From NCBI GenBank assembly GCA_045589295.1, contig JAZNOU010000012.1, forward strand, positions 160,001 through 224,000: DNA of 64,000 nt, in the 5' to 3' direction. Shown here piece after piece: positions 11,212 to 28,735 of the stretch. Source of the DNA: Clostridia bacterium. Its GTDB lineage: Bacteria > Bacillota > Clostridia > RGIG6154. Position 1 is the first letter of the stretch. Each line of letters begins with the position of its first letter. Position numbers and translations under genes: made by a program. The notes beneath the pieces were generated by a model, which saw only the letters and a program-made list of their open reading frames with translations, made no database searches and had not been told where the DNA came from.

Positions 11212-11351
11212 AAAAAATCCCTCACTTTCTTTTTAATTAGTATAATATAAGTATTGAAAAAATGCAAATTTTTTATTATAATATATAATAGTGTAAATTT
11301 TAACTTTAATATTTACATAATTTGCCGGACATATTAAAGTCAGGAGGGAAT

Positions 11352-12803: not shown

Positions 12804-12809
12804 AACTTT

Positions 12810-12850
12810 AAGCAATCTCTCTTGTATGGGGGGATTGCTTGTAGGTTTTT
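12810..12850 (+). terminator. Intrinsic terminator after the M23 gene
   Basis: AAGCAATCTC...GGGATTGCTT stem followed by T-rich sequence. Confidence 0.6.
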
Positions 12851-12875
12851 GTCGCAAAATTTTTAGAAAAAACAC

Positions 12876-12904
12876 TTGATTTTGGTAAGTAGGTGTGCTA
12901 TAAT
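12876..12904 (+). promoter_or_regulatory. sigmaA promoter of the PqqD/S-layer locus
   Basis: TTGATT-N17-TATAAT with extended TG. Confidence 0.7.
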
Positions 12905-12967
12905 TATCTTACGTAGGTATAACTGTGGATTTTTTTGTGTACCAATCAATTTTTGGAAGGTGAACAG

Positions 12968-13231
12968 ATGCGACTAAAAGATGGCTTTTTATTAAGAAAT
13001 GTTGCCGGTGAATATGTTGTTGTCCCAACAGGGAACAGCATGGTTGACTTTAAGGCTATGATATCTCTTAATGAAACAGGCGCGTTTTTATGGGAGCAGC
13101 TTTTAGCAGACAAATCAGAGCAGCAACTTTTAGATGCGCTTTTGAGTGAGTATGACGTTGATGAAAAAACCGCATCTGAAGATATTAAAGAGTTTGTAGA
13201 GTTGCTTAAAGAAAAGAACCTGTTGGTATGA
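12968..13231 (+). CDS. PqqD-family protein / stand-alone RiPP recognition element (RRE)
   Basis: 87 aa; FLLRNVAGEYVVVP...LNETGAFLWEQL...LLSEYDVDEKTASEDIKEFVELL is the PqqD winged-helix pattern; ATG follows GAAGGTG. Confidence 0.9.
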   Translation: MRLKDGFLLRNVAGEYVVVPTGNSMVDFKAMISLNETGAFLWEQLLADKSEQQLLDALLSEYDVDEKTASEDIKEFVELLKEKNLLV

Positions 13232-13680
13232 ATATGAAAAAAGTCTTAAGTACAAAAGAGATTATGCCTCTTGTGGGAGACATCTTAAAAACGGCGGAGC
13301 GAGTTAGGTTTACCGTTAAGGGAAACAGTATGTATCCGCTTTTAAGGTCGGACCGCGACGAGGTAGAGGTTATAAAGTGCGATAGTATAGGCAAGTATGA
13401 TATTGTTCTTTACAAAAGAAACAATGGTGACTATATTCTTCACAGGGTGCTCAAAGAAAATGACAACGCACTTTCAATAGCAGGCGATTTTGAACAGGAA
13501 CTTGAAAGCCCTGTGTATAAAGATCAGGTTATTGCAAAAGTTGTCAATATAATAAGAGACGGTAAAAAAGTTATCTCTTGTAACAACGGCATCTATAAAA
13601 CGTATTGTGTTTTGTGGGCGGCGGTATTTAAAAACAGACGAAGGATACTTAAAATACTTAAGAAACTGAGGAAATGGTGA
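13228..13680 (+). CDS. S24/S26-family serine peptidase, soluble
   Basis: VKGNSMYPLL (Ser), DIVLY, ILHRV (His), GD; no N-terminal TM helix; ATGA overlap with the RRE gene. Confidence 0.8.
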   Translation: MNMKKVLSTKEIMPLVGDILKTAERVRFTVKGNSMYPLLRSDRDEVEVIKCDSIGKYDIVLYKRNNGDYILHRVLKENDNALSIAGDFEQELESPVYKDQVIAKVVNIIRDGKKVISCNNGIYKTYCVLWAAVFKNRRRILKILKKLRKW

Positions 13681-15350
13681 AATTGAAAAATAAAGATATC
13701 GCTAAACAATGGTTTTTTAAGAATATCAGACAGGTTTTTGGCGGAGTTTTTGCTCTTACTTTTGTTTCTGTCCTGATTAATGTGTCAGGTGTCGGATTTG
13801 CGATTTCTTCAAAACGTGTTTTGGATGTAGCATCTAATTCAACTGAAGGGAACTTATTAACAGAAGCTTTAGTTTTGTTTTCTTTGGTTGTGATTCAGCT
13901 TATTTTGCAAATTATCCTCTCTAAGTGCTATGTTAAAACGCAGGCACAAACGAGAATTAAAATAAAAACCGACTTGTTTGAAAGCATAGTGAAAAAAGAT
14001 TTAACTGAGGTGAATTTTTATCACTCGGGTGAGTTGGTTAACAGGCTCACAAGCGACGTTAACGTTGTGTCAAACGCGGTGGTGGATATTTTACCAACTG
14101 CGATAGCACTTAGCATTGGGGTTTGTTTAAGCTTTGGGGTATTGTTCAGTTTGGACCCTGTTTATGCAGTTATTTATCTGATAGTTGCACCCCTTGCACT
14201 TTTAACTGCAAGATTTTTTAGAAAAAGGCTTAAAGTGTTACATAAAGAGTCGGTTTCAACCGACGGGATTGTTAAATCGTTTATGCAGGAATGTTTCAGA
14301 AATCTGCTCGTGGTCAAGGCTTTTGAAAAAGAAGATCACGTAACCGAAAAGTGTAATGCTTATCAACTTGCTAACTACAAGGTTTTGATAAAGAAAAACG
14401 ATATCAGCATTTTAGCGAACGTAATGTTCTTTTTGTCCATTACTGCAGGCTATTATTTAACTCTTATTTGGGGGGCATACAAGCTTTCGATAGGAATTTT
14501 AACAATCGGTGAAATTGTTGCAATGCTTGAACTTGTTTCACAAATTCAGTCCCCGCTAAAGTCATTATCATCACTTCTTCCGCAGTATTATTCGGCGGTA
14601 GCTTCATCTGAAAGAATTTTGGAGCTTGAAGATTTGCCTGATGAAAAACAACTAAATGCAAGCAGTGAAAAAGTTGATGACTTTTCAAAGCTTGTCATTG
14701 ACAATATGTCTTTTTCGTATGATGAAAGTTTAATTTTTGATAAAGCTTCCTGCGAAATTGAAAAAGGCGACATCGTCGGAATTTACGGCGAGTCGGGAAT
14801 TGGAAAAAGCACACTTATAAAACTTATTTTAGGAGTGCTTAAGCCCAATAAGGGCGAGATTTACATAGTTGACCCGAGCGGTCAAAAGATTTTGGTTGAT
14901 ACAGAAACTAAAAACCTGTTTTCTTATGTGCCTCAAGGTAACCTGATATTATCTGGCACAATAGCAGAAAACGTGGTTTTCGGTTCTGACAACATAGATA
15001 TAAAGCTGGTTGAACGTTGCATCAAAGTGTCGCAGCTTGATGAAATGGTCAGTCAGTTGCCACTAAAACTTGATACAGGTTTGGGTGAAGGCGGCCTAGG
15101 TCTTTCTGAAGGACAGGTACAGCGATTATCTATCGCAAGGGCATTGTATCGGAATTCTGAAATACTGTTGCTTGATGAAGCAACGTCGGCTCTTGACCGA
15201 GAAACCGAAATCAGGGTGTTGGAGGAAATGAAGAGTTTGAATAAGACTTGTCTTTTCATAACTCACCGCAAAGAAGCACTTTTAAGTTGCAGCAAGCTTT
15301 TAAGTGTGAAAAACGGAAAGATTTCCATCGACAGGCAGGAAATTTTATAA
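13674..15350 (+). CDS. ABC exporter (fused TMD-NBD), no C39 peptidase domain
   Basis: TM domain, Walker A GESGIGKS, signature LSEGQVQR, Walker B LLLDE. Confidence 0.92.
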   Translation: MVKLKNKDIAKQWFFKNIRQVFGGVFALTFVSVLINVSGVGFAISSKRVLDVASNSTEGNLLTEALVLFSLVVIQLILQIILSKCYVKTQAQTRIKIKTDLFESIVKKDLTEVNFYHSGELVNRLTSDVNVVSNAVVDILPTAIALSIGVCLSFGVLFSLDPVYAVIYLIVAPLALLTARFFRKRLKVLHKESVSTDGIVKSFMQECFRNLLVVKAFEKEDHVTEKCNAYQLANYKVLIKKNDISILANVMFFLSITAGYYLTLIWGAYKLSIGILTIGEIVAMLELVSQIQSPLKSLSSLLPQYYSAVASSERILELEDLPDEKQLNASSEKVDDFSKLVIDNMSFSYDESLIFDKASCEIEKGDIVGIYGESGIGKSTLIKLILGVLKPNKGEIYIVDPSGQKILVDTETKNLFSYVPQGNLILSGTIAENVVFGSDNIDIKLVERCIKVSQLDEMVSQLPLKLDTGLGEGGLGLSEGQVQRLSIARALYRNSEILLLDEATSALDRETEIRVLEEMKSLNKTCLFITHRKEALLSCSKLLSVKNGKISIDRQEIL

Positions 15351-15372
15351 AGTTTGTTTGGGAGGAATAAAG

Positions 15373-16329
15373 ATGAAATGTAAGAGAATTATCAAAGTAG
15401 TAAGTGCGCTTGCATTAACTGTAGCTTTGTTAGTATCTGCTAGTGTTGTTTCATTTGCTGCAACATATACAACACAGACAACATACATTAATGAAGATAC
15501 TATTGAAGTTATTTCAAGAGCTACAGGCTTAAACGATGGCGAAATGGCTACTTATGTTGCTTACAGAAACGGCGAGTTCTCAGAAACTAATGCAGTTTAC
15601 ATCGACCAGGCAACAGAGCAGGACAATGCAGTTGAATTTAGATATCAGGCAGATTCTGATGATGTAAAAGCAACAGTATTGTTCGGCGGTGAAAGCGCAC
15701 CGAATACATTGGAGCCGGATAAAGTTGGTCATAAAATTACAGTATATGTTAACGAAGTGGCTCAAGGCGACCAAGTTGCTGCTTATGCTGTAGCTGACTA
15801 TGACGGCGAATATCTCGCAAGAGAATTTTCGGTAAACATTGAAAACGGAAAAGCTATTAAAAAAGTTGAATTCGCAGCTGATGGAGCTGAAAAAACAACT
15901 GTAGAAGCTTGGTATGTTAAAAATGGCGCGTTGGTTGTATTAAGCCGTGTTATTGAATCAGATGGTTCATTGTACATTACAGCAGAGGATGCAACCATTT
16001 CTGTTAAACTTGGTGCTGTTACTGGTACTGAAAACACAATTACTGCATTTGCCAAAGCAGTTTGCACAGATGATGCAGACTACGGAATCTTAATTGCGGA
16101 CTCAGAAGTTGAAATCGAAGCTGCTGGTCGTATTGACTGGAAAGATGCTGAAGACTACACAACTCCGGTTTATTTCAATGCTTTAGGCAAAGGTAACAAT
16201 GGTGTATTTGCAGTAGAAGTAACTGATGAAGACTGCTTTGTTGCAGGTAAAAGCTTTAATGTAAAAGCTTATGCTGATTCTGGAGAGACAGAAGTGTATT
16301 CAATTGATACTGTAACTGTAAGATTATAA
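15373..16329 (+). CDS. Secreted acidic beta-rich hypothetical protein
   Basis: Sec signal MKCKRIIKVVSALALTVALLVSASVVSFAA; D/E/T/V-rich mature part; RBS GGAGGA. Confidence 0.75.
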   Translation: MKCKRIIKVVSALALTVALLVSASVVSFAATYTTQTTYINEDTIEVISRATGLNDGEMATYVAYRNGEFSETNAVYIDQATEQDNAVEFRYQADSDDVKATVLFGGESAPNTLEPDKVGHKITVYVNEVAQGDQVAAYAVADYDGEYLAREFSVNIENGKAIKKVEFAADGAEKTTVEAWYVKNGALVVLSRVIESDGSLYITAEDATISVKLGAVTGTENTITAFAKAVCTDDADYGILIADSEVEIEAAGRIDWKDAEDYTTPVYFNALGKGNNGVFAVEVTDEDCFVAGKSFNVKAYADSGETEVYSIDTVTVRL

Positions 16330-16376
16330 GAGCGACTGTATCATTTAACGATACAAATTCAGGAGGAGAATTTACT

Positions 16377-16538
16377 ATGAAAAATTATCAAAAACCTGTT
16401 TTAGAGGTTGTTGAATTAGCAGTTGCTGAAAATATCGCTGCATTAGTGCCGAAAACTATCTATAAAAGATCAGTTGGCAAGAAGATGGCTCAGGACACCA
16501 GAATAATGCTTGTAGAAGATTTAAGTAATCTTAGCTAA
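16377..16538 (+). CDS. 53-aa putative RiPP-like precursor peptide, missing from the ORF track: MKNYQKPVLEVVELAVAENIAALVPKTIYKRSVGKKMAQDTRIMLVEDLSNLS
   Basis: Strong RBS AGGAGG ahead of ATG 16377; TAA at 16536-16538; YQKPVL matches the YxxPxL RRE-binding motif; RRE gene in the same locus. Confidence 0.8.
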   Translation: MKNYQKPVLEVVELAVAENIAALVPKTIYKRSVGKKMAQDTRIMLVEDLSNLS

Positions 16539-16587
16539 TTTTAGCACTGCAAATTAAATAAAAATTTGAGAGGATGTTTACTTTAAT

Positions 16588-17463
16588 ATGCAATATACTG
16601 TCGCAGGTTTTAATATTGATGTTGTCAGTGAACATCCTTCTTATCTTTTTATGAGACTCAAAGACTATGAAAGCACTTTTTCGGGGGAAGCAGACTTTAC
16701 AGTCAGGTGTAAAGAAGAAAAAAATATCGCTCTCCCCGATGATATTGTGCTTATAGGTCAAAGAGTCGGAAGATGGATATGGTTTGAAAAAAAAGATGGT
16801 ACGCTCGGTGCGTACATAAAATATGACGATGTCGAAAACATTGCGGCATTGGCATTGTGGGATAAAGCTTTTAAAAATATTGAATTATCTGTTTATGATA
16901 TTGAGCCATACGGCAATTTGCCAATAGCTCAAAGAATTTTTTATTTACTGGGAGATGTTATTGCATACTCGGTATTAAACTGCGGTGCAGGAGTTTTCCA
17001 TTCTTCTGCGATAAGTTATAAAGGAAACGGGATTTTATTTTCCGCACCATCGGGAACAGGAAAATCCACACATACATCTTTATGGAAAGATGTTTTTGGT
17101 GATAATGTTGTTATATTTAATGACGATACACCAATACTTAAGATAGAAAATGACGTTTGTTTTGCCTACGGCTCACCTTGGAGCGGCAAAACTGCGATTA
17201 ATGAAAATATAAAGGTTCCGCTTAAGGCGATTGTATGCCTTGACAGAGCGCAGACCAATTCAATAAAAAGACTTACGGGGATTAGTGCTTTTTACAGAAT
17301 TTTCAATGAAATGAGAAAGCCTCCGGTTGAGAGTCTTATGGACAAGAGTCTTACGGTTATGGATAGTATTTTGCAGAAAGTTCCGGTTTACGAGCTTTTT
17401 TGCAATAAAAATAAAGATGCAGTAATGACAGTTTTTGACGCTGTCGGTTTTGACAAATTATAA
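16588..17463 (+). CDS. HPr kinase-like P-loop protein (lasso-kinase/ScmC-like)
   Basis: FHSSAI, Walker A APSGTGKST, FNDD acidic pair, GSPWSG; no DRTGG N-terminal domain of true HprK. Confidence 0.8.
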   Translation: MQYTVAGFNIDVVSEHPSYLFMRLKDYESTFSGEADFTVRCKEEKNIALPDDIVLIGQRVGRWIWFEKKDGTLGAYIKYDDVENIAALALWDKAFKNIELSVYDIEPYGNLPIAQRIFYLLGDVIAYSVLNCGAGVFHSSAISYKGNGILFSAPSGTGKSTHTSLWKDVFGDNVVIFNDDTPILKIENDVCFAYGSPWSGKTAINENIKVPLKAIVCLDRAQTNSIKRLTGISAFYRIFNEMRKPPVESLMDKSLTVMDSILQKVPVYELFCNKNKDAVMTVFDAVGFDKL

Positions 17464-17477
17464 GAGAGGTAAAAAGG

Positions 17478-19088
17478 ATGAATAAAAAAATATTTTTTGG
17501 TACACTTTTGTGTATGGTTTTATGTTTAAGCATTGCGACATGCGCATTTGCCGCAACATTTTCTGATTTATCAAAAAGCCACTGGGCGTACGATAATATT
17601 GTCGAATTAAGTTCACAGGGGGTTATAAACGGATACTCTGACGGTACATTTCGCCCCGAAGCATATGTTACGAGAGCTGAATTTGTTAAGCTTATAGGTA
17701 CAATCGATACAATCAAAAATGGTGACTTTGACGACCTACCTAAAACTCACTGGGCATATGAATACGTTATGAAATCAGGGGTTGATGTTGACAGAAAGAA
17801 CTTTCGCCCTGATGAAAATATCACAAGAGCAGAAGTTTTAGATATATTGTGGAACAGATATGGAACTGAAACAGATGCAAAAGTTCCCGGAATTATAGAA
17901 AATCAGCACAAAAATGTTCCGGCTGTTACCTGGGGATATTCTTACGGACTTATGATAGGCGATGACGGAATAAATTTAAGACTTAGTGATGATTTGTCAA
18001 GAGCAGAAGCGGTTACACTTATTTTGCGCTCCAGAAAGATTGATACATCAAAGCAAAAGTTGCTTGCAGACAATGTAAACAGCAAGATTTTGGAAAATAT
18101 TTTTAATGATACAATGCTTTTTGATAAACCTTACAGTGAAAATGAAACAGTTACAGTTGGCGAAATTTCACACGCAGCTTTAAGACTTGCATATCAAACA
18201 AAGCAAATTCCATATAACAAGGATTTGTATATCGGCGATCCACAATTTGATGGTGATTATGCACTTGATATTGCTCACATGGCAAAACAAGTATTTGGTG
18301 AAGCTTCAAACAACAAAGAGTTTGCAGAAGGCAAGGCAAATCAACAGCAGGTTTTGGCAGCACTTATGTATGGTTATATGTTTAAAGCAAACGACTCGCC
18401 TGTAATCGGCAGAATGGATGATTACTACAAAGATGCAGTTGTTGCAAAAGGTCTTACAATGCAAAATATGTTACTTACATACACTAACAGACGCGGCATT
18501 TTTGCAAGCGCTGACGGACTTTTGCATAATGACAAAGCTGTAACACATAAAGAAATTGCATCAATTCTTTTGCAACTTGATAACTTTACAGGTTCACAAA
18601 TAAGCTATTCAAACGGCAAAGAATCGGATGAAAAATTAAGCACAGATGCTTATATTTACGAAAATGCAGATGATGGATTTGGAATTTTATTAAAAGGCAT
18701 TCCAAACGTAGTTTACGAGACACCAATGAAAGCTCCTGCTAAAGAGTTTACAGTTTTTGCAAGAGATTTCTTTGAAATATTTACTACTCTTTCAGATGGC
18801 ATTAAGGCAAAAGCCAAAAGCGAGGGCGCTGAAATTGTTTTAAGAGTTTATCCAACACTTATTGCAAATGCAGGCAATGAAGTTATTATGAGAACAAAGA
18901 TATATGTAGCTTCAAATCCAAAAGGCTTAAATCTTGGTGAAATTATCGGTAAGTGCGATATGAATACAGATATTAAAGCCTTGGAAGGTAAAACGTATTT
19001 TGTTGATATTTCAACCAATCATCCATTGGATGACATGTACATCAATCCTGAAAATGTAAGCTTAAAACAGCTTATATGGAATGATTAA
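17478..19088 (+). CDS. S-layer homology (SLH) domain surface protein
   Basis: Signal peptide (AFA); FSDLSKSHWAY...GYSDGTFRPEAYVTRAEF plus two more SLH units (ITRAE, LSRAE). Confidence 0.88.
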   Translation: MNKKIFFGTLLCMVLCLSIATCAFAATFSDLSKSHWAYDNIVELSSQGVINGYSDGTFRPEAYVTRAEFVKLIGTIDTIKNGDFDDLPKTHWAYEYVMKSGVDVDRKNFRPDENITRAEVLDILWNRYGTETDAKVPGIIENQHKNVPAVTWGYSYGLMIGDDGINLRLSDDLSRAEAVTLILRSRKIDTSKQKLLADNVNSKILENIFNDTMLFDKPYSENETVTVGEISHAALRLAYQTKQIPYNKDLYIGDPQFDGDYALDIAHMAKQVFGEASNNKEFAEGKANQQQVLAALMYGYMFKANDSPVIGRMDDYYKDAVVAKGLTMQNMLLTYTNRRGIFASADGLLHNDKAVTHKEIASILLQLDNFTGSQISYSNGKESDEKLSTDAYIYENADDGFGILLKGIPNVVYETPMKAPAKEFTVFARDFFEIFTTLSDGIKAKAKSEGAEIVLRVYPTLIANAGNEVIMRTKIYVASNPKGLNLGEIIGKCDMNTDIKALEGKTYFVDISTNHPLDDMYINPENVSLKQLIWND

Positions 19089-19118
19089 TCTGGTTTAATT
19101 TACATGGAGGAAAAATAA

Positions 19119-19811
19119 ATGGAAGAAAGAGAAATTGATATCTGGGGACTAATACAGTCAATAATTAAGAGATGGTGGATTGTTGCTATTATCACTGTTA
19201 TAGTCGGAACAACAGGTTTTACATATTCAAAATTTGCAATCACTCCTTTGTATGCGGCAAAAGGAACACTTTATATTACCGTAGACAATACTGCCTCCTT
19301 GCAAGGTGGAACAAGTCTTGATTACAACTCAATTTTGGCGGCACAGGAGCTTACAAAAACATATTCTTTAATACTTTCAAGTAATACATTCTACAGAATT
19401 GTTGCTGCAGAAAGCGGACTTGACTACAGCTATAAAGAAATTTCAAGAATGGTTACAATGGGCAACGAAAATGACAGTGAAATTATGTCGATTACAGCAA
19501 AATGTGCAAATAGAGAACACGCAGCTATTATTGTTGAAACTATACTTAACAATGCACAGGCAGAAATTTCAAGAGTGGTTATTGGCGGAAGTGTAAGAAT
19601 TATTGACCATCCTGAACTTCCTAACGGACACTCATATCCTAACGTAACAAAGAACACATTCTTATGCTTGGCGCTTGGTGTTATCTTAGGTTGTGCTCTT
19701 GCAATTTTCATTGAATGGCTTGATGATACAATCAAGAGTGATGAGGATGTGCTGAAGTTTGGCATCCCGATATTAGCAGTTATCCCGCTTTTAGAAACAA
19801 AAAGCGAGTAA
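19119..19811 (+). CDS. Wzz/CpsC (CapA/YveK-like) polysaccharide co-polymerase
   Basis: EIDIWGL..KRWW, TM1, PLYAA, Pro-rich SYPN, TM2, LDDTIKSDEDV..GIPILAVIP. Confidence 0.88.
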   Translation: MEEREIDIWGLIQSIIKRWWIVAIITVIVGTTGFTYSKFAITPLYAAKGTLYITVDNTASLQGGTSLDYNSILAAQELTKTYSLILSSNTFYRIVAAESGLDYSYKEISRMVTMGNENDSEIMSITAKCANREHAAIIVETILNNAQAEISRVVIGGSVRIIDHPELPNGHSYPNVTKNTFLCLALGVILGCALAIFIEWLDDTIKSDEDVLKFGIPILAVIPLLETKSE

Positions 19812-19851
19812 AAAAAGACAGTAAAATTTTTCAGAAAGGGTGAGAGAAGAT

Positions 19852-22800
19852 ATGAGAAAGCGTGTAAAATCGCTTATTGGCATGATTATTGCAATGACTA
19901 TGATCTTGCCGACGGCTTTGCCGGTGACAACTCCTGTTTCGGCACAAAATTCCTACGGATTTAATGATTTTCCTACCGGATGGTCAGCACCTGCAATGTC
20001 ACATGCAGTTGAAAACGGATTGATATACGGAAAATCCGAAGACCGTATATGTCCTACAGATAATTTAACTAGAGCGGAAATGGCTACAATCATTAACCGT
20101 GCATTCGGTGCTACGGTGGAAAAGGATATTTCGGCATTTTCAGATGTAGCTCAGTCAGCTTGGTATTACAATGAAATAAAAAAGGCATACAATATGCAAA
20201 CCCTTTATGGTGATGCAGGCGGCACTATGCGTCCCGATGCCTTTATTATAAGAGAAGAAGCCATAGCGATTGTTGCAAGAGCTATGGTTTTAAGTGGTTA
20301 TTCGGCTTCTAATCTTGATAAGTTTAATGATAAAGACCAAATTGCAGATTGGGCAGTAGATCCGCTGGCTTCAATGGTAGCAAACGGCTACGTTAACGGC
20401 GATGAAAAGTCTAATATGAATCCGAAGGCATTCATTACCAGAGAAGAATTTGCTCAGCTTTTACATAATATTGTTAAGCATTATTATGATGCTGAAGATG
20501 GCGTAACAACATTCAACGGGAATGTTATGATTAATGAACCGACCACTTCATTGAGTGATTTGGTTGTTAATGGCGATCTTATTTTGGGTGATGGTGTTGG
20601 AACAAGCAACATTGTTCTAAAAAATGTTAAAGTAACAGGTCGTATCCTTATCAGAGGCGCAACCCATATTTCGTTTAAAAACAGCAACTTTGGTGGCGGC
20701 GTTACAGTTAAAAATGTTAATGATGTGGTACATTTTGATCATTTTAGTGATGAAGTGCATTTTAATGATATGCAAGATCACACAGAGGTCACATTTAAGA
20801 AGAAAACTACCGGCGGTGGCGGTGGTGGAACTCCTCCGGCACCTACAACTGCTAGTTATAAAGTGGAACACTATCAGGAAGCTTTGGATGGAAGTTTTGC
20901 AGTTTTTGAAACAGAAACCCTTTCAGGCAGTATTGGTGCAAGTGTTACAGCAGTAGCTAAAACCTATACAGGTTTTAGCGAAGATACTGTAAATCCATCA
21001 AGAGTTGCAACAGGCACTGTTGTATCTGATGGTTCTTTGACTCTTAAGCTTTTTTACACAAGAAACAGTTATACAGTAACATTTGATGCTCGCGGCGGTG
21101 CTATTTCAGGCACACCGAAAACTGTTTATAAATTCGGTGAAACATTAGAACTCCCTGTACCTACAAAAGGAACAGACACATTTGGCGGGTGGTGGACAGC
21201 GCTAAATGGAACAGGAACAAAAATTGAAAATACAAGCGTATTGGGAACAGATATTACATCTGCTGCCATTACTGTTTATGCGCATTGGATACCTGCAGCT
21301 CCGACTCCCACAGCTACGACGTTTACAGTAAAACATTTGTTTGAAAAACTTGACGGAACTTATGAAACTAAAGCAGAACGCGGAGATGAACTTAACGTTG
21401 CCGGTGATATAACGGTTTCAATCGTTCCTGAAAATTACAGAAATCCGATTGCGGGATTTAATTATTTTGATTATAGCTTTGACGGAACAGACAATGCAGG
21501 CATGCCAAAAGCAGATGGAAGCACTGTTCTTAATATCCGTTATAATAGAAAGAGCTACGACATCGTATATAACTATGGTGAAGCAGGCGGAAGCAACACA
21601 GTTTCATTTAGATATGGTGAAAGTGTAGATCTTTCAATTCCGACAGTTACACCACCTGTAGGTAAGTATTTTGCAGGTTGGTATGATGCACTTGTTGGCG
21701 GCACACAGGTAACATTCCTTGAAACACCTGTTGGCGGAACAACAATTTATGCACGTTGGGCAGAAGATGTTGGAGTTTATACTGTTGAATTCTATCAGCA
21801 GAATTTGGATGGAACTTACACCCAAGTAACTGCGGACACTTTATCAGGACTTACTGGTGTAGTAGGAACAGATGTAAGTGTGGATAAAAATTCGACCACA
21901 ATCAAAGATAAGTATATAGGTTTTGAAGTTAATGAAACAGAAAGTACACTCACACAAAGACTTGCTAAAACAGGCACAGTACTTAAAGTTTATTATGACA
22001 GAAAGATTTATACAATCGATTACGACTTTGATGGCGGTTATGCAGATGGAACATATACTGATACATTTATGTATGGCCAAACCGTTGCGCTTGCCAAAGG
22101 TAAAAATAGCAATGGCAAGGTTTTAGGCGGTTGGTTTACCGATTTAGATGGTAATGGCACACAGGTAACAGATACTGCAAATATTGATGCTATCTTAGGC
22201 GCGCTCACAGGCAATACAATCACACTTTATGCTTATTGGGTAGAAGAAATAGGCGAATATTCTGTTGAATTCTATCAGGAAACTTTAGATGGTGCTGATT
22301 ATACTCTTGTTGCAGCTGACACTATTGTCGGTCTTACAGGAACAGTCGGCGAGAAAGTAGCTATTGATGCAACAATAGATGAAGTTAAGAATAAATATTC
22401 AGGCTTTACAGTAAACGTTGCAAAGAGTGAACTTTCAAAAACACTTGCTAAAGAGGGCACAGTTCTTAAAGTTTACTACGACAGAAATATTTATACCTTG
22501 TATTACAATTATAGCGATGCTGATACTGTGGGAATTGGAAGTGCGACCTTTAAACATGGTCAGAATATCACATTCCCTGATGAATCAACATTCAATAAAG
22601 AATCATTTAGCTTTGCAGGCTGGTACACAACCCAGGACTTTAAAGATGATGAAGTTGTAGATACAGGCAATACAATCGAACAGATTATAGACATTGCAAA
22701 TGGTGAAACAGAAACTACCATATATGCTAAATGGGCAAAATTCTTCACAGTAACATTCAGAGAGGGTGCAAAAATAGGAACGTACACAGTTGATCCTGCT

Positions 22801-25800
22801 GTTGAAAACACAGTTCCGTATTCTGCATTCCCTTACGACAAACTTGTTGAACGTTATAAGACAGGTTACTTTGAAGATGAATCTGTATCTTCTGTATACG
22901 CAGGTAATGAGTATAAACACACATTTGAAGGACAGTGGTACTACACAGATGAAAACGGCAACGATGTCGTATTTACAGACGAAACAATTGTAGACCGCGA
23001 TCTTACAGTAAGATATAAATTCAGATATGTGAGACTGGAACTTTTTGTTGAGAAATTAGGTCATAACCTTGTACTTGAGGTGCCTTTTGAAGAAAGTACA
23101 AGAATTATCGACACAATTAAAGATGAATTGTTTGTAAATCAGGAAAAAATACTTTTGGTTGCAGATGAAGTTGATGCAAGAAGCAAGTTTATGGCGTTGA
23201 ACCTTAAGTTGGTTAACTTCCTTGACAGTAAGGGAATTGAAATAGTTGAACCTGGTATGATTTTCGCCGAAGATGGCGAAATCTTAAAGCAACATATCAG
23301 ATTTAATGCATTTGCATATCTTGATGAAGCAAGTGTTAAGACTGTTGTTGTAAACGCAATCAGAACAACATTCAAAAATGATCCTTTAAGAATGCGTGGC
23401 GTTATCGATGAAATGATGACAGAACAGGATGAAGACGTTGTTAACCTTATGGATACAATGCTTGTATCTATGCTTTCAGGTTCAGATGCTGCAAGAATCA
23501 AGGGTATTATTGCAGATGCGGTGGAAGATGCGGTTGCAAATGATACAACCGGTGAGTTCAAAAACAAAATTAAAGACATCATAACAACACAGCTTGATGC
23601 AGGTAATACAACAGTTGAAACAAGCATTAAAAAGGCAATTAAAGATTACTTTATGAACAGCGCAAATGATGCTAAAATCAGAGAAATCGTTTCAGACCTT
23701 ATTGATGATGCTTATAAAACTGATGATGAAACCGATCCGGTAAGGAATTTCGTGAAGAGTTACATAAAGACATATCTTAACGAAAACCCAACAGTTTTAG
23801 ATGATATGATCAGAGAAATGGGCGAAAATTTAGATCCTAATGATCCTAACGATGCGCACATTATTGATCTTATTCATGAAGTTTTAGACGAAAATGTAAT
23901 ATATCTTGAAAAACTTGTTGATGATGCTATCAAGAACCTTAAAAACACAATAGGCGAACCAATACACAGCTTTATCGTTGATGCCATCACAACAGAGCTT
24001 TCAACTAATGCTGCTGAGCTTGATATTTTGATTGATGAAATCTCAAATGCAAACGTAACTGATATTAAGTCGGTGCTTGCAACAGTTATGGAAGATAACG
24101 ATACATTTGAAATTATTGTTAAAGATGCAATTGCCGATGAAGCGGTATTTAATAAGGTTATCAAAGCTGCTCTTGACAACGCAAGTGTATTTGATGCAAT
24201 CGTAAGCGAACTTTGCAGCGGCGATACGAGCTTCTATAATATGCTTGTAGACATTGCACTTTCGTCAGATTCACTTAAGGGCGAGGTTAAAAATGCAGTT
24301 GTTAATAATGATGATGCACTTATAAGCGTACTTAATGAAGTGGCATCTGATGCTTCACTTAAAGCTGAAATGGTTGAAGAAATTTTAGTTGCTTCTGATG
24401 CTAAGCTTAAAGATCAGCTTACAAGCCCGCTTTCTATAACATCGGATTATTATGCAGACGTTAAAGCTCAGGCACTCAGTCAGGCTGAAACTGAAATAAT
24501 AGGCATAATCGAAACAGGTATCAATGAAGATGAACACCCAGATTACTGGCCGATTGCTTTTGAAAAGGCTATGGAAATAGCAGAAGCAAGAGTTAGACAG
24601 GATCTTATTGCTGGCAGTGTTGATCCTAACGGTTCACTTTGGGATACAATGTATGCAGAGGCAATGGCTCAAGCAGCAATTGATGTCAAAGCAGAGCTTA
24701 ACGGAGGTATTACTGATGCTTCAGAATACTACGCAGCTGCTGTAAATGGTGCTAAAGAGCAGGCAGAAAAAGAAATTACAGACTTACTTTCAACAGGTAT
24801 TACTGAGGGTAGCAAGTACTGGGATGTTGCATATAGTACTGCAAAAGGAATTCTTAGAACCGAAATTGACACATCATTCGATTCAAAGATTGTAGAAATC
24901 AAGACAGATGCTAATCTTAAAGCACAGGTGGTAGCTTGGGCACAGACAGCGATTAATAACACTAATATAGAAAGTGCTATTAAGAACTATGCTAAAGGCT
25001 TGGCTACAAGCACAGACTCTGCGGATGTTAGCCTTAGAACATCAATTATTGACACTGTAATCAATACAGCAGATAGCTTAGAACCAGGTAAAAAAGAGAC
25101 ATTGGTTAGTGATATTATCACAGAGCTTTTGAAACCTGCAAATGCAACAGTTAAAGAGACTGTTGAAAACAAGGCTATTGAAGTATTAAACAGAGCTGAA
25201 AACAATGCACTTAAAACTACGCTTATCGATAGTGTGCTTGAAGATATCTTTGCTGACAACACACTTAAAGGCGATTTGATTGCAAGACTTAAGACTAAGG
25301 TTAAGGACCCTGCACAGGAAGCATTTAAGTTAACTGTTATTAGCGAAGCTATCAATGCAGTTGTTAATGATAGCTCAGTTAATGCAAGGGCAGTTATAAT
25401 AATAAATGACCTGATTGAAACAGATACTGCATTTAAGGCAGACATTATAGAGCACATCGTCGACTATATCTTAGAAGATGCTACTGTTAGAGCTGAAGCT
25501 ATGGAAAAGGTTGTCGAAATGATTGAAGATCCGGAAGATGACAGCCATAAGCAGGAAGCAATCGACTTTGCGTTTGACACCCTTAAGGGCGACACAACGA
25601 AACGTGCAGAAATTGTGGATAAGTTCTTAACAAACATCTTAGGTAATAATGACAAGAGAGAAGATATGGCAACAGAAGTTATCGACATTATGTTCTCTAA
25701 CGATACCTTAAGAAATAGGATTTTAGATCTTGGGTTCGAACAGATGTTCGCAGGTGAAGATACAATTGCAGAAATTGTTTCACTTGCACTCGACGAACTC

Positions 25801-27066
25801 ATTAGTGACGATACCGTAAGACGTGATATGATTATTGCAGTAATCAGCACTGAAAGCGGAAGAAGAAAGATTTTAGACATTCTCTTTGATGAACTTGAAA
25901 GGGATCCTGAGTTCATTGACGAAATAGTTGACATCGCAATGAACGGCAAGTATGGCGATTTGGTTGATATATTTGTATCCGACCTTATTTACAACGGAAA
26001 GATTCAGATTAATCCAGACAACAGACAAATCGCAGAAGAAATCGTTCTTCCAATGTTAGACGACATTTCTCTTGATACTGTTTTAGGCAAATTGCCCGCA
26101 AAAGTTACAGATGTTTTACCAACATCTGTAATCGAAAAGGCGTTTAACAAGTTTAAGTCAAAAGCAAGAGAACTTTTGGTTGAAGGTATAAATGAAGCTA
26201 AAGAAGGCAACTGGAAAGACATTTCAGTTATGGTGGACAACGAGCTTGATATAATTAATGAAGTTTTAGTTCCGCTTTATAATAAAGTATTCCCGAAAGT
26301 TGTTGACAAAGCTGAGGACTTCTACTACTACAACGAAAATGTTTACTTAAAAGCAATAGTTGACATGATTGACCCTGAGTTCTTGCTTGATAACACAAAA
26401 CCGGCATCAATTGGTGGAACAGGATACAGATTAAGAACAACAGAAGAATATTATGAAATTATCAGAAATATCTCTGTTTTAGTTGATGATGCAGCAAACT
26501 GGTATATGGAAAACATTTCTGATGACCAGATTAACGGTGCTATTGACAAAGTTGCAGGAAAAGTTAATACTTTACTTGCAAAGGTTAATGGACTTGTGGG
26601 CGGAAGAATACCAATGTCTAAGATTGACAAAGTGGTTGAATACACCAAGAAGGCTCTTGATAAGAGAGAAAGCGTTTATAATATTACAACAAATGGTGTA
26701 TTTGAAAAGGTTGACAAGGTTTATAACAAGCTTATTGAAATTGTTAAAAACAAAACCGGTGTTGATATTACTAAGTCTACTACGATAGAAGTTACTTTTG
26801 ACGGAAGTGAAATCGACGTAAACGGTAAGGATGTCAACATTGACAATCGTAAGATAAGCATCAGTGTTAAAGGTTACAAATTTGAACTTGATTCAGAATC
26901 AATCACAGCACTTAACAAAACTGTTAATATTGACAGATTTGTTCAAAAAGCTGCCGATTTATTCGGAACAAGAAGTGTAACATTTAAAATTATAAATGAT
27001 GCTCCGTACAGCTACGGTGCTTATGTGGGCAATAACTACATAAAGTTAGCTGCTGAGTACAAATAA
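19852..27066 (+). CDS. Giant (~2404 aa) SLH-anchored surface protein with InlB-B/Listeria-Bacteroides repeats and a long alpha-helical repeat region
   Basis: Signal peptide, three SLH units (LTRAE, IIREE, ITREE), GGGGG linker, repeated F.GW(Y/W/F)...YA.W modules, >1200-aa acidic amphipathic C-terminal part; ATG 19852 (GTG 19840 is an alternative). Confidence 0.85.
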   Translation: MRKRVKSLIGMIIAMTMILPTALPVTTPVSAQNSYGFNDFPTGWSAPAMSHAVENGLIYGKSEDRICPTDNLTRAEMATIINRAFGATVEKDISAFSDVAQSAWYYNEIKKAYNMQTLYGDAGGTMRPDAFIIREEAIAIVARAMVLSGYSASNLDKFNDKDQIADWAVDPLASMVANGYVNGDEKSNMNPKAFITREEFAQLLHNIVKHYYDAEDGVTTFNGNVMINEPTTSLSDLVVNGDLILGDGVGTSNIVLKNVKVTGRILIRGATHISFKNSNFGGGVTVKNVNDVVHFDHFSDEVHFNDMQDHTEVTFKKKTTGGGGGGTPPAPTTASYKVEHYQEALDGSFAVFETETLSGSIGASVTAVAKTYTGFSEDTVNPSRVATGTVVSDGSLTLKLFYTRNSYTVTFDARGGAISGTPKTVYKFGETLELPVPTKGTDTFGGWWTALNGTGTKIENTSVLGTDITSAAITVYAHWIPAAPTPTATTFTVKHLFEKLDGTYETKAERGDELNVAGDITVSIVPENYRNPIAGFNYFDYSFDGTDNAGMPKADGSTVLNIRYNRKSYDIVYNYGEAGGSNTVSFRYGESVDLSIPTVTPPVGKYFAGWYDALVGGTQVTFLETPVGGTTIYARWAEDVGVYTVEFYQQNLDGTYTQVTADTLSGLTGVVGTDVSVDKNSTTIKDKYIGFEVNETESTLTQRLAKTGTVLKVYYDRKIYTIDYDFDGGYADGTYTDTFMYGQTVALAKGKNSNGKVLGGWFTDLDGNGTQVTDTANIDAILGALTGNTITLYAYWVEEIGEYSVEFYQETLDGADYTLVAADTIVGLTGTVGEKVAIDATIDEVKNKYSGFTVNVAKSELSKTLAKEGTVLKVYYDRNIYTLYYNYSDADTVGIGSATFKHGQNITFPDESTFNKESFSFAGWYTTQDFKDDEVVDTGNTIEQIIDIANGETETTIYAKWAKFFTVTFREGAKIGTYTVDPAVENTVPYSAFPYDKLVERYKTGYFEDESVSSVYAGNEYKHTFEGQWYYTDENGNDVVFTDETIVDRDLTVRYKFRYVRLELFVEKLGHNLVLEVPFEESTRIIDTIKDELFVNQEKILLVADEVDARSKFMALNLKLVNFLDSKGIEIVEPGMIFAEDGEILKQHIRFNAFAYLDEASVKTVVVNAIRTTFKNDPLRMRGVIDEMMTEQDEDVVNLMDTMLVSMLSGSDAARIKGIIADAVEDAVANDTTGEFKNKIKDIITTQLDAGNTTVETSIKKAIKDYFMNSANDAKIREIVSDLIDDAYKTDDETDPVRNFVKSYIKTYLNENPTVLDDMIREMGENLDPNDPNDAHIIDLIHEVLDENVIYLEKLVDDAIKNLKNTIGEPIHSFIVDAITTELSTNAAELDILIDEISNANVTDIKSVLATVMEDNDTFEIIVKDAIADEAVFNKVIKAALDNASVFDAIVSELCSGDTSFYNMLVDIALSSDSLKGEVKNAVVNNDDALISVLNEVASDASLKAEMVEEILVASDAKLKDQLTSPLSITSDYYADVKAQALSQAETEIIGIIETGINEDEHPDYWPIAFEKAMEIAEARVRQDLIAGSVDPNGSLWDTMYAEAMAQAAIDVKAELNGGITDASEYYAAAVNGAKEQAEKEITDLLSTGITEGSKYWDVAYSTAKGILRTEIDTSFDSKIVEIKTDANLKAQVVAWAQTAINNTNIESAIKNYAKGLATSTDSADVSLRTSIIDTVINTADSLEPGKKETLVSDIITELLKPANATVKETVENKAIEVLNRAENNALKTTLIDSVLEDIFADNTLKGDLIARLKTKVKDPAQEAFKLTVISEAINAVVNDSSVNARAVIIINDLIETDTAFKADIIEHIVDYILEDATVRAEAMEKVVEMIEDPEDDSHKQEAIDFAFDTLKGDTTKRAEIVDKFLTNILGNNDKREDMATEVIDIMFSNDTLRNRILDLGFEQMFAGEDTIAEIVSLALDELISDDTVRRDMIIAVISTESGRRKILDILFDELERDPEFIDEIVDIAMNGKYGDLVDIFVSDLIYNGKIQINPDNRQIAEEIVLPMLDDISLDTVLGKLPAKVTDVLPTSVIEKAFNKFKSKARELLVEGINEAKEGNWKDISVMVDNELDIINEVLVPLYNKVFPKVVDKAEDFYYYNENVYLKAIVDMIDPEFLLDNTKPASIGGTGYRLRTTEEYYEIIRNISVLVDDAANWYMENISDDQINGAIDKVAGKVNTLLAKVNGLVGGRIPMSKIDKVVEYTKKALDKRESVYNITTNGVFEKVDKVYNKLIEIVKNKTGVDITKSTTIEVTFDGSEIDVNGKDVNIDNRKISISVKGYKFELDSESITALNKTVNIDRFVQKAADLFGTRSVTFKIINDAPYSYGAYVGNNYIKLAAEYK
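20857..22734 (+). repeat. Four tandem ~155-160-aa two-domain modules (YxVE(H/F)YQ..LDG..YxR + InlB-B repeat)
   Basis: Modules begin YKVEHYQE, FTVKHLFE, YTVEFYQQ and YSVEFYQE; units 3 and 4 share DNA identity at ~480-bp spacing (CTGTTGAATTCTATCAG; CTTAAAGTTTA). Confidence 0.8.
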
Positions 27067-27075
27067 TTAATGGTC

Positions 27076-27104
27076 AGCGGGTAAACAGTATAAGTTTACC
27101 CGCT
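27076..27104 (+). other. Intergenic 11-bp stem-loop without a U-tract
   Basis: AGCGGGTAAAC-agtataa-GTTTACCCGCT. Confidence 0.7.
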
Positions 27105-27131
27105 TGATTAAAAAAGAGAGGATGATACATT

Positions 27132-28697
27132 TTGAAAAAAGCATTATGTCTTGTTTTAGCTTTAATGTTATGTCTTCCATCTGTGGTTGCTTTTGCAGAC
27201 ATAGAAGGAACTGTACAGGGCGATATAATGCTCACTTCAACAGAGGGCGAAGCTTTGCCTGAGGATAAAGAAACTGCAACTGAAACATCAGATGCGCTTA
27301 AGTTCAGCGATATTATTGCAGATTCGGTTCTTGGTGAGGCTGTATACAAGCTTGTTGATGCAAAGGTGATATCGGGGTATCCTGATGGCACATTCAGACC
27401 TGATTCAGGGGTGACTCGTGCCGAACTTTGTAAAATGATAAATCTGGTTTATGATTTAGATGTAAAAGCGACAAGTATGTCTTTTAAAGATGTAACAGAA
27501 GAAGACTGGTATTATGATTACGTTTTGGTTGCGGTCCAGGCGGGATATATTAAAGGCTTTACAGATAACACATTCAGAGGGGACGACCCTGTTACAAGAG
27601 AACAGGCGTGTGCTATTATAAACAGAGTAACAACAGCAAAAGGTGCAAGTCTTTTTGACTTACCTTTTACAGATAACATAACAGATGCTGTGTCAGATTG
27701 GGCATTGGAAGATGTTAAAAAAATTATTGCAAACTATGTAATGCCTTTGGAAGCAGGCGGTAAATTCCGTGCAACAGAGGATATTACAAGAGGCGAGCTT
27801 GCGCTTGCATTAGAAGGTTTTGTTGTTATAGTTCCTGAATATACAGTAACTTTTGAAACAAATGGAGGAAGTGAGATTGCTTCTGTTGTGGTTAAAGAGG
27901 GTAAAACAGTTGCAAAACCTGAAGATCCGAAAAAAGATAACTATACTTTCAATGGTTGGTATACAGACAGTAAGCTTAAAACTGCTTATGATTTTGAAAA
28001 AACGGTTTCAGATAACATTACACTTTATGCAAAATGGCAGGCAAAAGTAACAGGCGGTGGCGGTGGAGGAGTTTATATTCCGCCTTCAGGTGGTACACCT
28101 TCATCGTACACAGTAACCTTTAATTCAAAAGGCGGCAGTGCAGTTGACAGCGTAACGGTTACATCGGGCGCAACAATTTCAGCACCTGCAGAGCCTACAA
28201 AAGAAATGAAAGTGTTTACAGGCTGGTATACAGACTCTGCTTGCACAAATCTTTTTGATTTTACAACTCCAATAACAGGCAATATTACGCTTTATGCGGG
28301 TTGGGAAGATGACCATGCGGCTATGAATGGTCAAAAAATATCCGACCTTACAATATTTAAAGAGGCGTTGGTTGCTACTACATTTGACATTCAGCCTCAT
28401 ACAGACATGGCAAGCATAATTGTTTCCACGTTTGAAAGTGTGATTTCTGATGGTGAGTCCGGAATAATTCTTACAAATGACTATATTAAAACAACGTACG
28501 AAGCAAATATGCTCCAGATAAAAGATATTTGGGAGAATCAGCTGTTTGTAGATACATTCTCAGACGAGCAACAGGATTTTAAAGATAAAATAGCGCTTGT
28601 TTTAACAGATGCACAAGCAAACGGCTATTCAATGTCACTTTCAGAAACTTATGTATTGTTCAGAACAATAATAGGTGATTTTATAAATTGGGAATAA
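27132..28697 (+). CDS. SLH surface protein with two Listeria-Bacteroides (InlB-B) repeats
   Basis: Signal peptide (AFA); SLH GYPDGTFRPDSGVTRAE etc.; YTVTFETNGGS...FNGWYTD...LYAKW twice; GGGGG linker. Confidence 0.9.
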   Translation: MKKALCLVLALMLCLPSVVAFADIEGTVQGDIMLTSTEGEALPEDKETATETSDALKFSDIIADSVLGEAVYKLVDAKVISGYPDGTFRPDSGVTRAELCKMINLVYDLDVKATSMSFKDVTEEDWYYDYVLVAVQAGYIKGFTDNTFRGDDPVTREQACAIINRVTTAKGASLFDLPFTDNITDAVSDWALEDVKKIIANYVMPLEAGGKFRATEDITRGELALALEGFVVIVPEYTVTFETNGGSEIASVVVKEGKTVAKPEDPKKDNYTFNGWYTDSKLKTAYDFEKTVSDNITLYAKWQAKVTGGGGGGVYIPPSGGTPSSYTVTFNSKGGSAVDSVTVTSGATISAPAEPTKEMKVFTGWYTDSACTNLFDFTTPITGNITLYAGWEDDHAAMNGQKISDLTIFKEALVATTFDIQPHTDMASIIVSTFESVISDGESGIILTNDYIKTTYEANMLQIKDIWENQLFVDTFSDEQQDFKDKIALVLTDAQANGYSMSLSETYVLFRTIIGDFINWE

Positions 28698-28703
28698 GTT
28701 GTT

Positions 28704-28735
28704 AAAAGGTGAAAGTTTTATCTTTCGCCTTTTTT
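28704..28735 (+). terminator. Intrinsic terminator ending the PqqD/S-layer locus
   Basis: AAAAGGTGAAAG-ttttat-CTTTCGCCTTTTTT. Confidence 0.8.

Follow-up and report, generated by a model that had tools for sequence, protein, structure and literature searches.

We analysed a stretch of 64,000 nucleotides (nt) from a Clostridia bacterium (GCA_045589295.1, contig JAZNOU010000012.1, 160,001 to 224,000), which is called the window here and supplies the coordinates below unless another contig or locus is named. Positions 12968-17463 probably hold a cassette for a ribosomally made, post-translationally modified peptide (RiPP) that lacks a cyclase and represents a clostridial sister lineage of the linear polyphosphorylated peptides (LPPs). 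The LPP kind is assigned because the kinase, the peptidase and the RiPP recognition element (RRE) are homologous to those of a bona fide LPP locus, L089 of Paenibacillus contaminans, in profile comparisons with hhalign. By homology with the lpp system of Paenibacillus alginolyticus, the PqqD-type RRE would bind the YxxPxL leader of a precursor of 53 amino acids (aa) and a kinase of the HPrK/PEPCK fold would phosphorylate a hydroxyl residue of the core. An S26 peptidase of the SipW type, free of a membrane anchor and assisted by the RRE, would then remove the leader, and an MsbA-like ABC half-transporter would export the linear product. A first-pass annotation of this DNA had proposed a cyclase-less cassette for a linear peptide that is phosphorylated, cleaved from its leader and exported. 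Such a route matches the published LPP experiments (PMC13381572), the homology to L089 and the failure to find a cyclase or a lasso B2 peptidase in the genome.

Cassette enzymes and probable precursor

The cassette comprises the following genes.

12968..13231, + strand: LppB-like discrete RRE of the PqqD family, 87 aa (PF05402, 4.9e-19)
13228..13680, + strand: candidate LppS-like leader peptidase, archaeal/endoplasmic reticulum (ER)-type (SipW-like) S26, 150 aa (hhalign, motifs)
13674..15350, + strand: LppD-like ABC exporter of the MsbA type, a half-transporter of 558 aa (ABC_membrane 2.7e-32, ABC_tran 2.9e-26)
16377..16538, + strand: LppA-like putative precursor, 53 aa, MKNYQKPVLEVVELAVAENIAALVPKTIYKRSVGKKMAQDTRIMLVEDLSNLS (AGGAGG 8 nt before the ATG)
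16588..17463, + strand: LppK-like P-loop kinase of the HPrK/PEPCK fold, 291 aa (AlphaFold2 model with Foldseek; hhalign)

The reading frame of the RRE is open from TTG 12935, and its likely start is ATG 12968, as in its homologues. Residues N35, D72 and F76 align with N33, D70 and F74 in the crystal structure of LppB (PDB chain 9x8z_B), where D70 holds the Tyr of the leader, and D72 is invariant (28/28). Co-folding of the RRE with the precursor scored 0.36 against 0.00 for the best control; the runs agreed on at least 84% of contacts and the partner had a predicted local distance difference test (pLDDT) value of at least 48. In calibration 116 of 157 solved complexes and 2 of 215 mismatched pairs attained the mark; at scores of 0.60 or under, it was attained by only 18 of the 157 complexes, together with both passing mismatches. 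We take the result as weak support for leader binding. The pass may reflect memory, because like complexes have been solved (5v1u, 6jx3, 9x8z).

Direct family matches of the peptidase are weak (TIGR02228, 1.8e-5; Peptidase_S24, 0.035), and Peptidase_S24 was matched by two of its homologues, one over and one at the cut-off. When 29 homologues were aligned, GxSMxP, HR, GD and a Glu six residues after GD proved invariant (S34, H72, D87 and E93). A crude hydropathy test found no hydrophobic or transmembrane segment in the window protein (maximum Kyte-Doolittle 19-mer value 0.93). SipW is the ER/archaeal-type signal peptidase of Bacillus subtilis. It shares with the window peptidase the S26B-type motifs GxSMxP, HR and GD, and the top NCBIfam match of the latter is TIGR02228, archaeal-type signal peptidase I. 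Unlike SipW, the window peptidase has no membrane anchor and would work in the cytoplasm on a leader presented by the RRE, not on Sec signal peptides.

The top NCBIfam match of the exporter was MsbA (5.8e-70, under its cut-off). By sequence the kinase gave a weak match to ScmC (7.4e-5, 22 bits against a cut-off of 125), and its profile found nothing significant among PDB chains (best E 0.32). Its AlphaFold2 model (pLDDT 93) led Foldseek to PEPCK and HPr kinase/phosphatase at E 3e-6 and up, with TM scores of 0.5 or less. H138, the P-loop SAPSGTGKST, NDD and PWSGK are invariant in the family (24/24), and a PF27840 assignment was precomputed for all 120 kinase homologues listed. The identities proposed in the first-pass annotation were therefore upheld for the PqqD/RRE (PF05402), the ABC exporter (ABC domains), the HPrK-like kinase (PEPCK/HPrK fold) and the soluble S24/S26 peptidase (invariant GxSMxP, HR and GD, and the hydropathy maximum of 0.93).

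Relatives were collected through the kinase; of 3511 candidates, 2010 qualified as its homologues with an E of at most 0.001. The locus set is the best 80 of at least 267 relative-encoding stretches, from at least 600 matched, with one genome per species. Every one of the 80 loci belongs to Bacillota. Uncultured Clostridia of gut and rumen make up most of the set, which also takes in Clostridium pascui, two Paenibacillus species, Desulfosporosinus hippei and two Acetivibrio. Partner genes no more than 6 kb from the kinase gene were counted in tblastn searches with the window proteins, which included the SLH-domain protein encoded just downstream of the kinase (SLH536) and the Wzz protein after it.

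PqqD: 60/80 loci
S26 peptidase: 47/80 loci, each also with PqqD
Cognate ABC exporter: 34/80 loci
SLH536 homologue (E at most 1e-40, coverage 70% or more): 21/80 loci
Wzz: 17/80 loci

Two layouts were seen. The window layout, with PqqD upstream of the kinase, runs PqqD-(S26)-ABC-secreted protein-peptide-kinase-SLH536-Wzz (17 loci). The other, with PqqD downstream, runs kinase-PqqD-S26, followed by an ABC gene and/or a PF14907 NTP-transferase-like gene (43 loci).

In more than 20 loci the kinase gene has as its neighbour, in most cases just upstream, a small open reading frame (ORF) with the N-terminus M-K-x-Y-x-K-P-x-[LIV]. The pattern used, YxxPx[LIVM], gives many chance ORFs, and those kept were both kinase-adjacent and alignable. 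Across 22 aligned peptides Y4 and P7 are invariant (22/22) and K6 is nearly so. Peptides of the window lineage follow the consensus ...V-x-E-L-x-x-x-E-N-I-A-A-(L)-V-P-[KT]-T-[IV]-Y-K..., after which comes a variable tail rich in Ser, Thr and Gly. In the closest relative, L005, the enzymes are 70-83% identical to those of the window and the peptide is identical over its first 32 residues, whereas the tails agree at only about 6 of 21 aligned positions. RiPP families usually look like this, with a constant leader and a core that changes fast. The first-pass annotation had already read the 53-aa YxxPxL peptide as a RiPP precursor, and its homologues at the same position in more than 20 loci and its strong ribosome-binding site bear this out. 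A C-terminal Ser acceptor in the manner of paeninodin was considered as a rule for the family and rejected, since only 9 of the 22 peptides end in Ser.

Relation to polyphosphorylated and lasso peptide clusters

LPPs were described by Popov et al. (Nat Commun 2026; PMC13381572) starting from a SipW-like signal peptidase in Bacilli, and LppS is named there as a homologue of SipW. The core genes are lppA (precursor), lppK (HprK-like kinase), lppB (RRE), lppS (peptidase like signal peptidase I, SpI), lppD (MsbA-like pump) and lppN (PF14907). In B. subtilis, LppK places up to four phosphates on Ser3 of the core; LppS (S29, H68, D93) cuts the leader only when LppB is present, and LppN was inactive in the authors' expression system (PMC13381572). 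The precursor leaders, found via Px9Fx[T/A], have the consensus YxxPxVLxHQxIxFETxxS, with the phosphorylated Ser at core position 3 (PMC13381572). The clusters are cyclase-less and often lie within capsule loci, which led the authors to speculate on biofilm; LPP genes were up-regulated synchronously with an exopolysaccharide (EPS) gene, and the patchy distribution, from which frequent gain and loss was inferred, is called 'typical for genes involved in biological conflicts' (PMC13381572).

As reference LPP locus we used L089, whose LppS and precursor were matched by eye to a row of the paper's Supplementary Data. The same species, P. contaminans, also carries a locus of the window type (L035). 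Against L089, hhalign gave 97.4% for the kinase (E 9.6e-12), 97.9% for the peptidase (6e-13) and 97.5% for the RRE (5.8e-12), and the three window proteins are roughly 22-32% identical to true LPP proteins. LPP clusters and the window alike have a precursor with YxxPx[V/L], a discrete RRE of the PqqD family that carries the Tyr-binding Asp, an S26 peptidase of the SipW type, an HprK-like kinase and an MsbA-like exporter; both are cyclase-less and both stand beside polysaccharide chain-length genes. They differ in gene order, B-S-D-X-A-K in the window and A-K-B-S-D-N in LPP clusters. Unlike the latter, the window adds a conserved secreted protein, SLH536 and Wzz in the same string, and has no PF14907 (LppN) gene in cis or elsewhere among its scanned ORFs.

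The first-pass annotation had asked for a nucleotidyltransferase partner elsewhere in the genome, and the search returned one PF14907 NTP-transferase-like gene, on contig C10 (G000:C10:10181-11344), within a glycan locus. The cluster-linked copies that match it are 26-29% identical to it, with the single exception of the copy in L065 (20%); among the 80 related loci, 10 have a gene of the PF14907 cluster within 8 kb of the kinase. The glycan locus itself (L086, G000:C10:8237-19046) encodes a GHMP sugar kinase, a sugar-1-phosphate nucleotidyltransferase, a hexapeptide acyltransferase, two GT4 proteins and two unassigned proteins of about 500 aa.

Several observations weigh against placing the window cassette with the LPPs. 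Clostridial SpI-RRE pairs like that of the window (Desulfosporosinus, Dehalobacter, Anaerocolumna, Ruminococcus) were classed by the LPP authors as 'RRE others', in the minor clusters 4, 9 and 20 of their sequence similarity network (PMC13381572). To LppB (9x8z, 5.7e-7) the RRE profile scores no better than to two lasso B1 proteins, TbiB1 (4.8e-10) and TfuB1 (1.1e-7). At the position of the catalytic D93 of LppS, as judged by spacing (21 residues after the His and six after GD), the window family has the invariant Glu E93, a conservative change. The precursor does not match Px9Fx[T/A]: in the window P+10 to P+12 read A-E-N, without a Phe, and there is no Ser where the core Ser3 would lie, three residues further on (the position was checked in the peptides of the window and L008). 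The consensus of the 22 peptides across this stretch is ...ELxxxENIAA.... At the level of whole loci, 15 of the 80, several with short flanks, had none of PqqD, S26, ABC, SLH536 and Wzz within 6 kb of the kinase, and seven loci of the window layout (L008, L011, L012, L016, L019, L022 and L063) had no S26 gene by tblastn or in ORF maps. Leader removal may differ in these seven, since no S26 gene was found there.

In the same seven loci, all but L063 of the Congzhengia type, PqqD is followed directly by ABC, and the peptide keeps the motif ...ENIAAVPTTVYK....

The window precursor thus appears to follow leader and core rules of its own, and therefore the known Ser3 site cannot be the acceptor. 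Judged by sequence, the cassette is a sister variant of the LPP kind, homologous to it but with its own precursor rules, and not a typical member.

Two other accounts of the chemistry were weighed against this LPP-like one. The RRE, peptidase and kinase might act on the neighbouring secreted and SLH proteins, the 53-aa ORF being incidental. This would sit well with the weak direct family matches of peptidase and kinase and with the constant presence of secreted and surface proteins beside them in the clade of the window. We nevertheless regard it as very improbable: the peptide ORF has a strong ribosome-binding site, homologues in which YxxP never varies occupy its place in more than 20 loci, the RRE retains the residues that contact Tyr and Pro, and the published homologous system acts on just such a peptide (PMC13381572). 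The second account holds that the product is a phosphorylated lasso peptide of the ordinary sort and that genes for its cyclase and B2 peptidase lie at another place in the genome. An RRE (B1), an HPrK-like kinase, an ABC exporter and a [Y/W]xxPxL leader are indeed also the layout of paeninodin and pseudomycoidin clusters (PMC6993621), and the assembly, at 97% completeness, is in 22 contigs. In those clusters the kinase polyphosphorylates a Ser, in pseudomycoidin the C-terminal one, and an optional PF14907 protein, PsmN, is needed for the addition of a hexose to the phosphate (PMC6993621). The machinery specific to lasso peptides, however, could not be found. Transglut_core3 (PF13471), the B2 peptidase family, had no match in the 97%-complete genome, and Asn_synthase (PF00733) had two matches, at 27 and 22 bits, which belong to MnmA and GuaA and represent their PP-loop domains. 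The leader carries Tyr in place of the paeninodin-type Trp and the penultimate Thr is absent; a serine peptidase stands in place of the cysteine peptidase, and in LPPs an S26 peptidase fills the B2 role (PMC13381572). With neither cyclase nor B2 peptidase found in the 97%-complete genome, the lasso account was rejected, and we give it next to no probability.

The same holds for the relatives. No lasso cyclase was seen near the kinases in ten fully annotated related loci (116 ORFs). A wider scan was aimed at ORFs of 470-800 aa lying no more than 8 kb from the kinases, with one representative for each BLAST cluster, and covered 71 of 80 representatives; eight of the other nine fall within the ten-locus annotation and the ninth is an M23 homologue of L005. 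Asn_synthase was matched by 1 of the 71, which lies in L039 at a distance of 7 kb from the kinase and encodes an AsnB-type protein whose GATase domains are complete. Absence of a cyclase, of radical SAM enzymes and of YcaO from the locus had been claimed in the first-pass annotation, and none of the scanned ORFs of window 1-53175 matched Radical_SAM, YcaO or Asn synthase; the genome-wide search for a lasso cyclase that it had called for came out negative with the MnmA, GuaA and Transglut_core3 results above. SynChlorMet (ScmC/ScmD) and GeoRSP systems resemble the window in that a small peptide is accompanied by a P-loop protein related to HprK and by a chaperone of the PqqD family; they are built around radical SAM/SPASM enzymes, whereas the window has no Radical_SAM match in those ORFs.

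The genome has a second PqqD-family gene (110 aa; G000:C13:17312-17482, L002), directly downstream of an OPT-type oligopeptide transporter gene and beside an MFS gene. The 3-kb locus around it showed no RiPP enzymes.

Surface genes of the string and their linkage in relatives

The cassette belongs to a string of ten genes, all on the + strand (window 12809-28733 with its borders; ORFs 12935-28697). The remaining genes and the borders are as follows.

12809..12841, + strand: terminator-like hairpin with a stem of 14 pairs and a T run after it; closes off the LysM-G5-M23 peptidase gene upstream and forms the 5' border
12876..12904, + strand: sigma-70-type promoter-like site, TTGATT-17-TATAAT with TG extension, 10/12 matches
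15358..16329, + strand: predicted secreted protein, 323 aa, between the exporter and precursor genes (N-terminal hydrophobic, signal-peptide-like segment)
17478..19088, + strand: SLH536, predicted cell-wall-anchored protein, 536 aa (signal peptide, three SLH repeats, helical middle, C-terminal domain weakly NTF2-like)
19119..19811, + strand: polysaccharide co-polymerase of the Wzz/CpsC type (chain-length determinant), 230 aa (Wzz 4.4e-11, GNVR 8.2e-5)
19840..27066, + strand: SLH surface protein, 2408 aa (SLH repeats, four Listeria-Bacteroides (Flg_new) repeats, long acidic helical tail)
27132..28697, + strand: surface protein with SLH and Flg_new repeats, 521 aa (Flg_new 2.5e-43, SLH 1e-33)
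28704..28733, + strand: intrinsic terminator hairpin, -14.5 kcal/mol, z -6.25, with T run; 3' border

Two of the junctions between adjacent ORFs are overlaps, of 4 and 7 nt; the remaining ones are gaps of 7, 47, 49, 14, 30, 28 and 65 nt. The ten co-oriented genes of the first-pass annotation were all found as + strand ORFs where it had placed them, spaced by no more than 65 nt, and the secreted protein, the three SLH proteins and Wzz/CpsC that it had named were recovered through Pfam domain matches and, for the first, the N-terminal hydrophobic segment. Its borders fared unequally. The terminator stood, since none of 200 shuffles was as stable as the 28704-28733 hairpin, which a pattern scan had missed. 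The site at 12876 is at most consistent with the proposed sigmaA promoter, because promoter-like sites across the region (57, against 52.1 in shuffles) show no excess. Beyond the 3' hairpin lie SecD and SecF, with a promoter-like site of their own at 28752. A division and cell-wall cluster (PBP, MurE, MurF, MraY, FtsW, MurA, FtsQ) lies just 5' of the string. The host genome, assembled in 22 contigs, amounts to 1.54 Mb.

A VanZ-like gene and an FHA-domain gene lie upstream of the string in divergent orientation (window 10250-11211, - strand). VanZ is a recurrent neighbour in another position: in Congzhengia-type loci it follows Wzz-CpsD and is co-oriented.

The 323-aa protein matched no Pfam or NCBIfam family. 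Its homologues form one cluster across 17 loci, the window included, and its place between exporter and precursor is conserved in the clade. SLH536 (SLH 1.9e-23; AlphaFold2 pLDDT 88) superposes through its SLH part on the Sap SLH domain bound to pyruvylated secondary cell wall polysaccharide with Z 16.6 and a root-mean-square deviation of 2.8 over 149 residues. Foldseek gave no match for the C-terminal two-thirds, the model exceeding 400 residues. Residues 418-536, compared as a domain within that model, reached Z 4-5 in VIA-align, with NTF2-like and cystatin-like folds tied, which gives no basis for a function. Atlas matches of SLH536 (residues 130-536) and of the 323-aa protein were to 'hypothetical protein' or SLH clusters (scores 0.94 and 0.84) and offered no lead. 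The Wzz/CpsC protein matches TIGR01006 at 1.9e-30, under the cut-off, and has a hydrophobic peak near residue 180. Homologues of CpsD (the BY-kinase) and CpsB (the phosphatase) lie together at G000:C5:34213-35684, apart from it. A homologue of the 2408-aa SLH protein, 47% identical, follows Wzz in L005. By eye, about 1300 C-terminal residues of the 2408-aa protein are highly acidic, helical and repetitive; they matched no family.

The linkage of the cassette to surface genes recurs in some of its relatives. An SLH536 homologue lies directly downstream of the kinase in 18 of the 80 loci. Among PqqD-upstream loci with at least 2.5 kb of downstream flank (n=16), SLH536 is directly downstream in 13 and Wzz is present in 12, whereas the other layout (n=43) has SLH536 in 3 and Wzz in 1. 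Kinase identity to the window is 36-43% in the window-layout loci, L005 excepted. In 11 related loci the 8 kb around the kinase include a CpsD-type gene, which usually comes just after Wzz, and in several window-layout loci Wzz is followed by CpsD, VanZ and HtrA. C. pascui, P. contaminans and A. alkalicellulosi have genes for large Flg_new, Glug or SLH proteins immediately upstream of the kinase; in Acetivibrio sp. an SLH536 homologue takes this place on the opposite strand.

A quick maximum-likelihood tree of the kinases was built from 68 rows, those shorter than 240 aa being left out; a more careful search was unfinished. The label 'window layout' was given to 19 rows, namely all 18 SLH536-downstream loci that were long enough and L006, which has Wzz and no SLH536 match. 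All 19 fall within one half of the tree (36 rows). The label needs 5 changes, of which the starred branches force 2, and in 500 shuffles the number was never as low. Linkage to the surface genes is thus a trait of one deep lineage and not an association that arose repeatedly and independently; it may go back to a single inherited arrangement. What the first-pass annotation had expected of relatives, a consistent linkage of the peptide cassette to surface genes, thus held in the window-layout loci (13/16 for SLH536, 12/16 for Wzz) and failed in the other 43, where it is nearly absent.

Some loci vary the theme in other ways. L083:2427-4049 (540 aa) and L053:10996-12462 (488 aa) each encode an N-terminal extension followed by a PF14907 NTP-transferase domain. 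The L083 extension is 33% identical to the window S26 peptidase, and in L053 the tblastn S26 match overlaps the start of the ORF. Both look like candidate peptidase-NTP-transferase fusions that would tie LppS-like to LppN-like functions. L065 of Desulfosporosinus hippei (4952-13198) is a hybrid with Wzy, a Wzz-CpsD fusion, PF14907, PqqD, radical SAM, kinase, S26 and ABC genes. It has four small ORFs with a YxKPx[LI] leader, two with Cys-rich cores and one with a His/Pro-rich core, and some copies lie further upstream; here the same chassis of leader, RRE, kinase and peptidase seems to be coupled to radical SAM chemistry. In the Acutalibacteraceae/Ruminococcus loci L030, L042, L056, L059 and L076, genes for a phage terminase large subunit and portal lie a few kb upstream of kinase-PqqD-S26-ABC, and the module may stand beside or inside a prophage there.

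Envelope, conflict or signal

Synteny alone suggests that the product may act at the cell envelope: a role there is hinted at because the cassette forms one gene string with cell-surface genes. Such a role would add a function to the LPP-like chemistry and leave the chemistry as it is. The exported phospho- or phosphoglyco-peptide could be a primer or anchor for the Wzz-dependent polymer, a ligand of SLH536, or a signal for chain length or the S-layer. Speaking for an envelope-directed peptide are the ten co-oriented genes with gaps of at most 65 nt between one promoter-like site and one terminator, and the persistence of SLH536 (13/16) and Wzz (12/16) in window-order loci whose kinases, L005 excepted, are 36-43% identical. 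CpsD, VanZ and HtrA after Wzz, the surface proteins directly upstream of the kinase in C. pascui, P. contaminans, A. alkalicellulosi and Acetivibrio sp., and the setting of the genome's only PF14907 gene among GHMP sugar kinase, sugar-1-phosphate nucleotidyltransferase and GT4 genes point the same way, as do the co-localization of LPPs with capsule loci and their synchronous up-regulation with an EPS gene (PMC13381572). However, the SLH536-downstream loci all sit in one half of the kinase tree (5 changes, 2 of them forced), the 43 loci of the other layout have SLH536 in 3 and Wzz in 1, and SLH domains occur near only 9 of the 126 SpI peptidases of published cluster 1 (PMC13381572). Neither SLH536 nor the 323-aa protein has a fold or motif that points to peptide binding, and CpsD and CpsB of this genome are on another contig. 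On this evidence we consider an envelope-directed peptide unlikely.

Alternatively, the product could serve competition or signalling, as a secreted antimicrobial or a quorum-type peptide, with the surface-gene neighbourhood reflecting inheritance or shared regulation. A hypervariable core behind a conserved leader and a dedicated exporter are consistent with this, as are the patchy distribution of LPPs with the gain and loss quoted above (PMC13381572) and the lack of surface-gene linkage in most of the 43 other-layout loci. Yet Pfam and NCBIfam scans made no immunity gene, two-component sensor or receptor evident among the ten genes of the window, a genome as small as 1.54 Mb still retains the whole string, and no activity is reported for any LPP (PMC13381572). 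We hold competition or signalling to be somewhat improbable.

For the envelope-directed peptide, a fuller scheme can be drawn for gut Clostridia that bear an S-layer, in which an LPP-like peptide would be a building block or regulator of the envelope. It would be phosphorylated, possibly sugar-modified by the trans-encoded PF14907 enzyme, exported, and captured or used by the secreted protein and SLH536 to prime, anchor or tune the Wzz-dependent polymer or to organize the giant SLH proteins. In this full form we think the scheme decidedly unlikely.

LPPs were first described in 2026, and their final structure and biological role are still to be found according to that report (PMC13381572). The lineage that is probably their sister is widespread in uncultured gut and rumen Clostridia. 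Its variants include the Glu at the catalytic position of the peptidase, forms that by tblastn and ORF maps are apparently peptidase-less, and one form with a radical SAM enzyme. One half of the kinase tree has the cassette joined to genes for Wzz/CpsC, a secreted protein and an SLH protein of the wall, in this case within a genome of 1.5 Mb. This linkage makes the speculation about capsule and biofilm concrete and testable, with the 323-aa secreted protein, SLH536 and Wzz as candidate partners. If the peptide is indeed a building block or regulator of the envelope, this would be the first function for the LPP kind, and a RiPP would serve as a structural or assembly factor of the cell wall.

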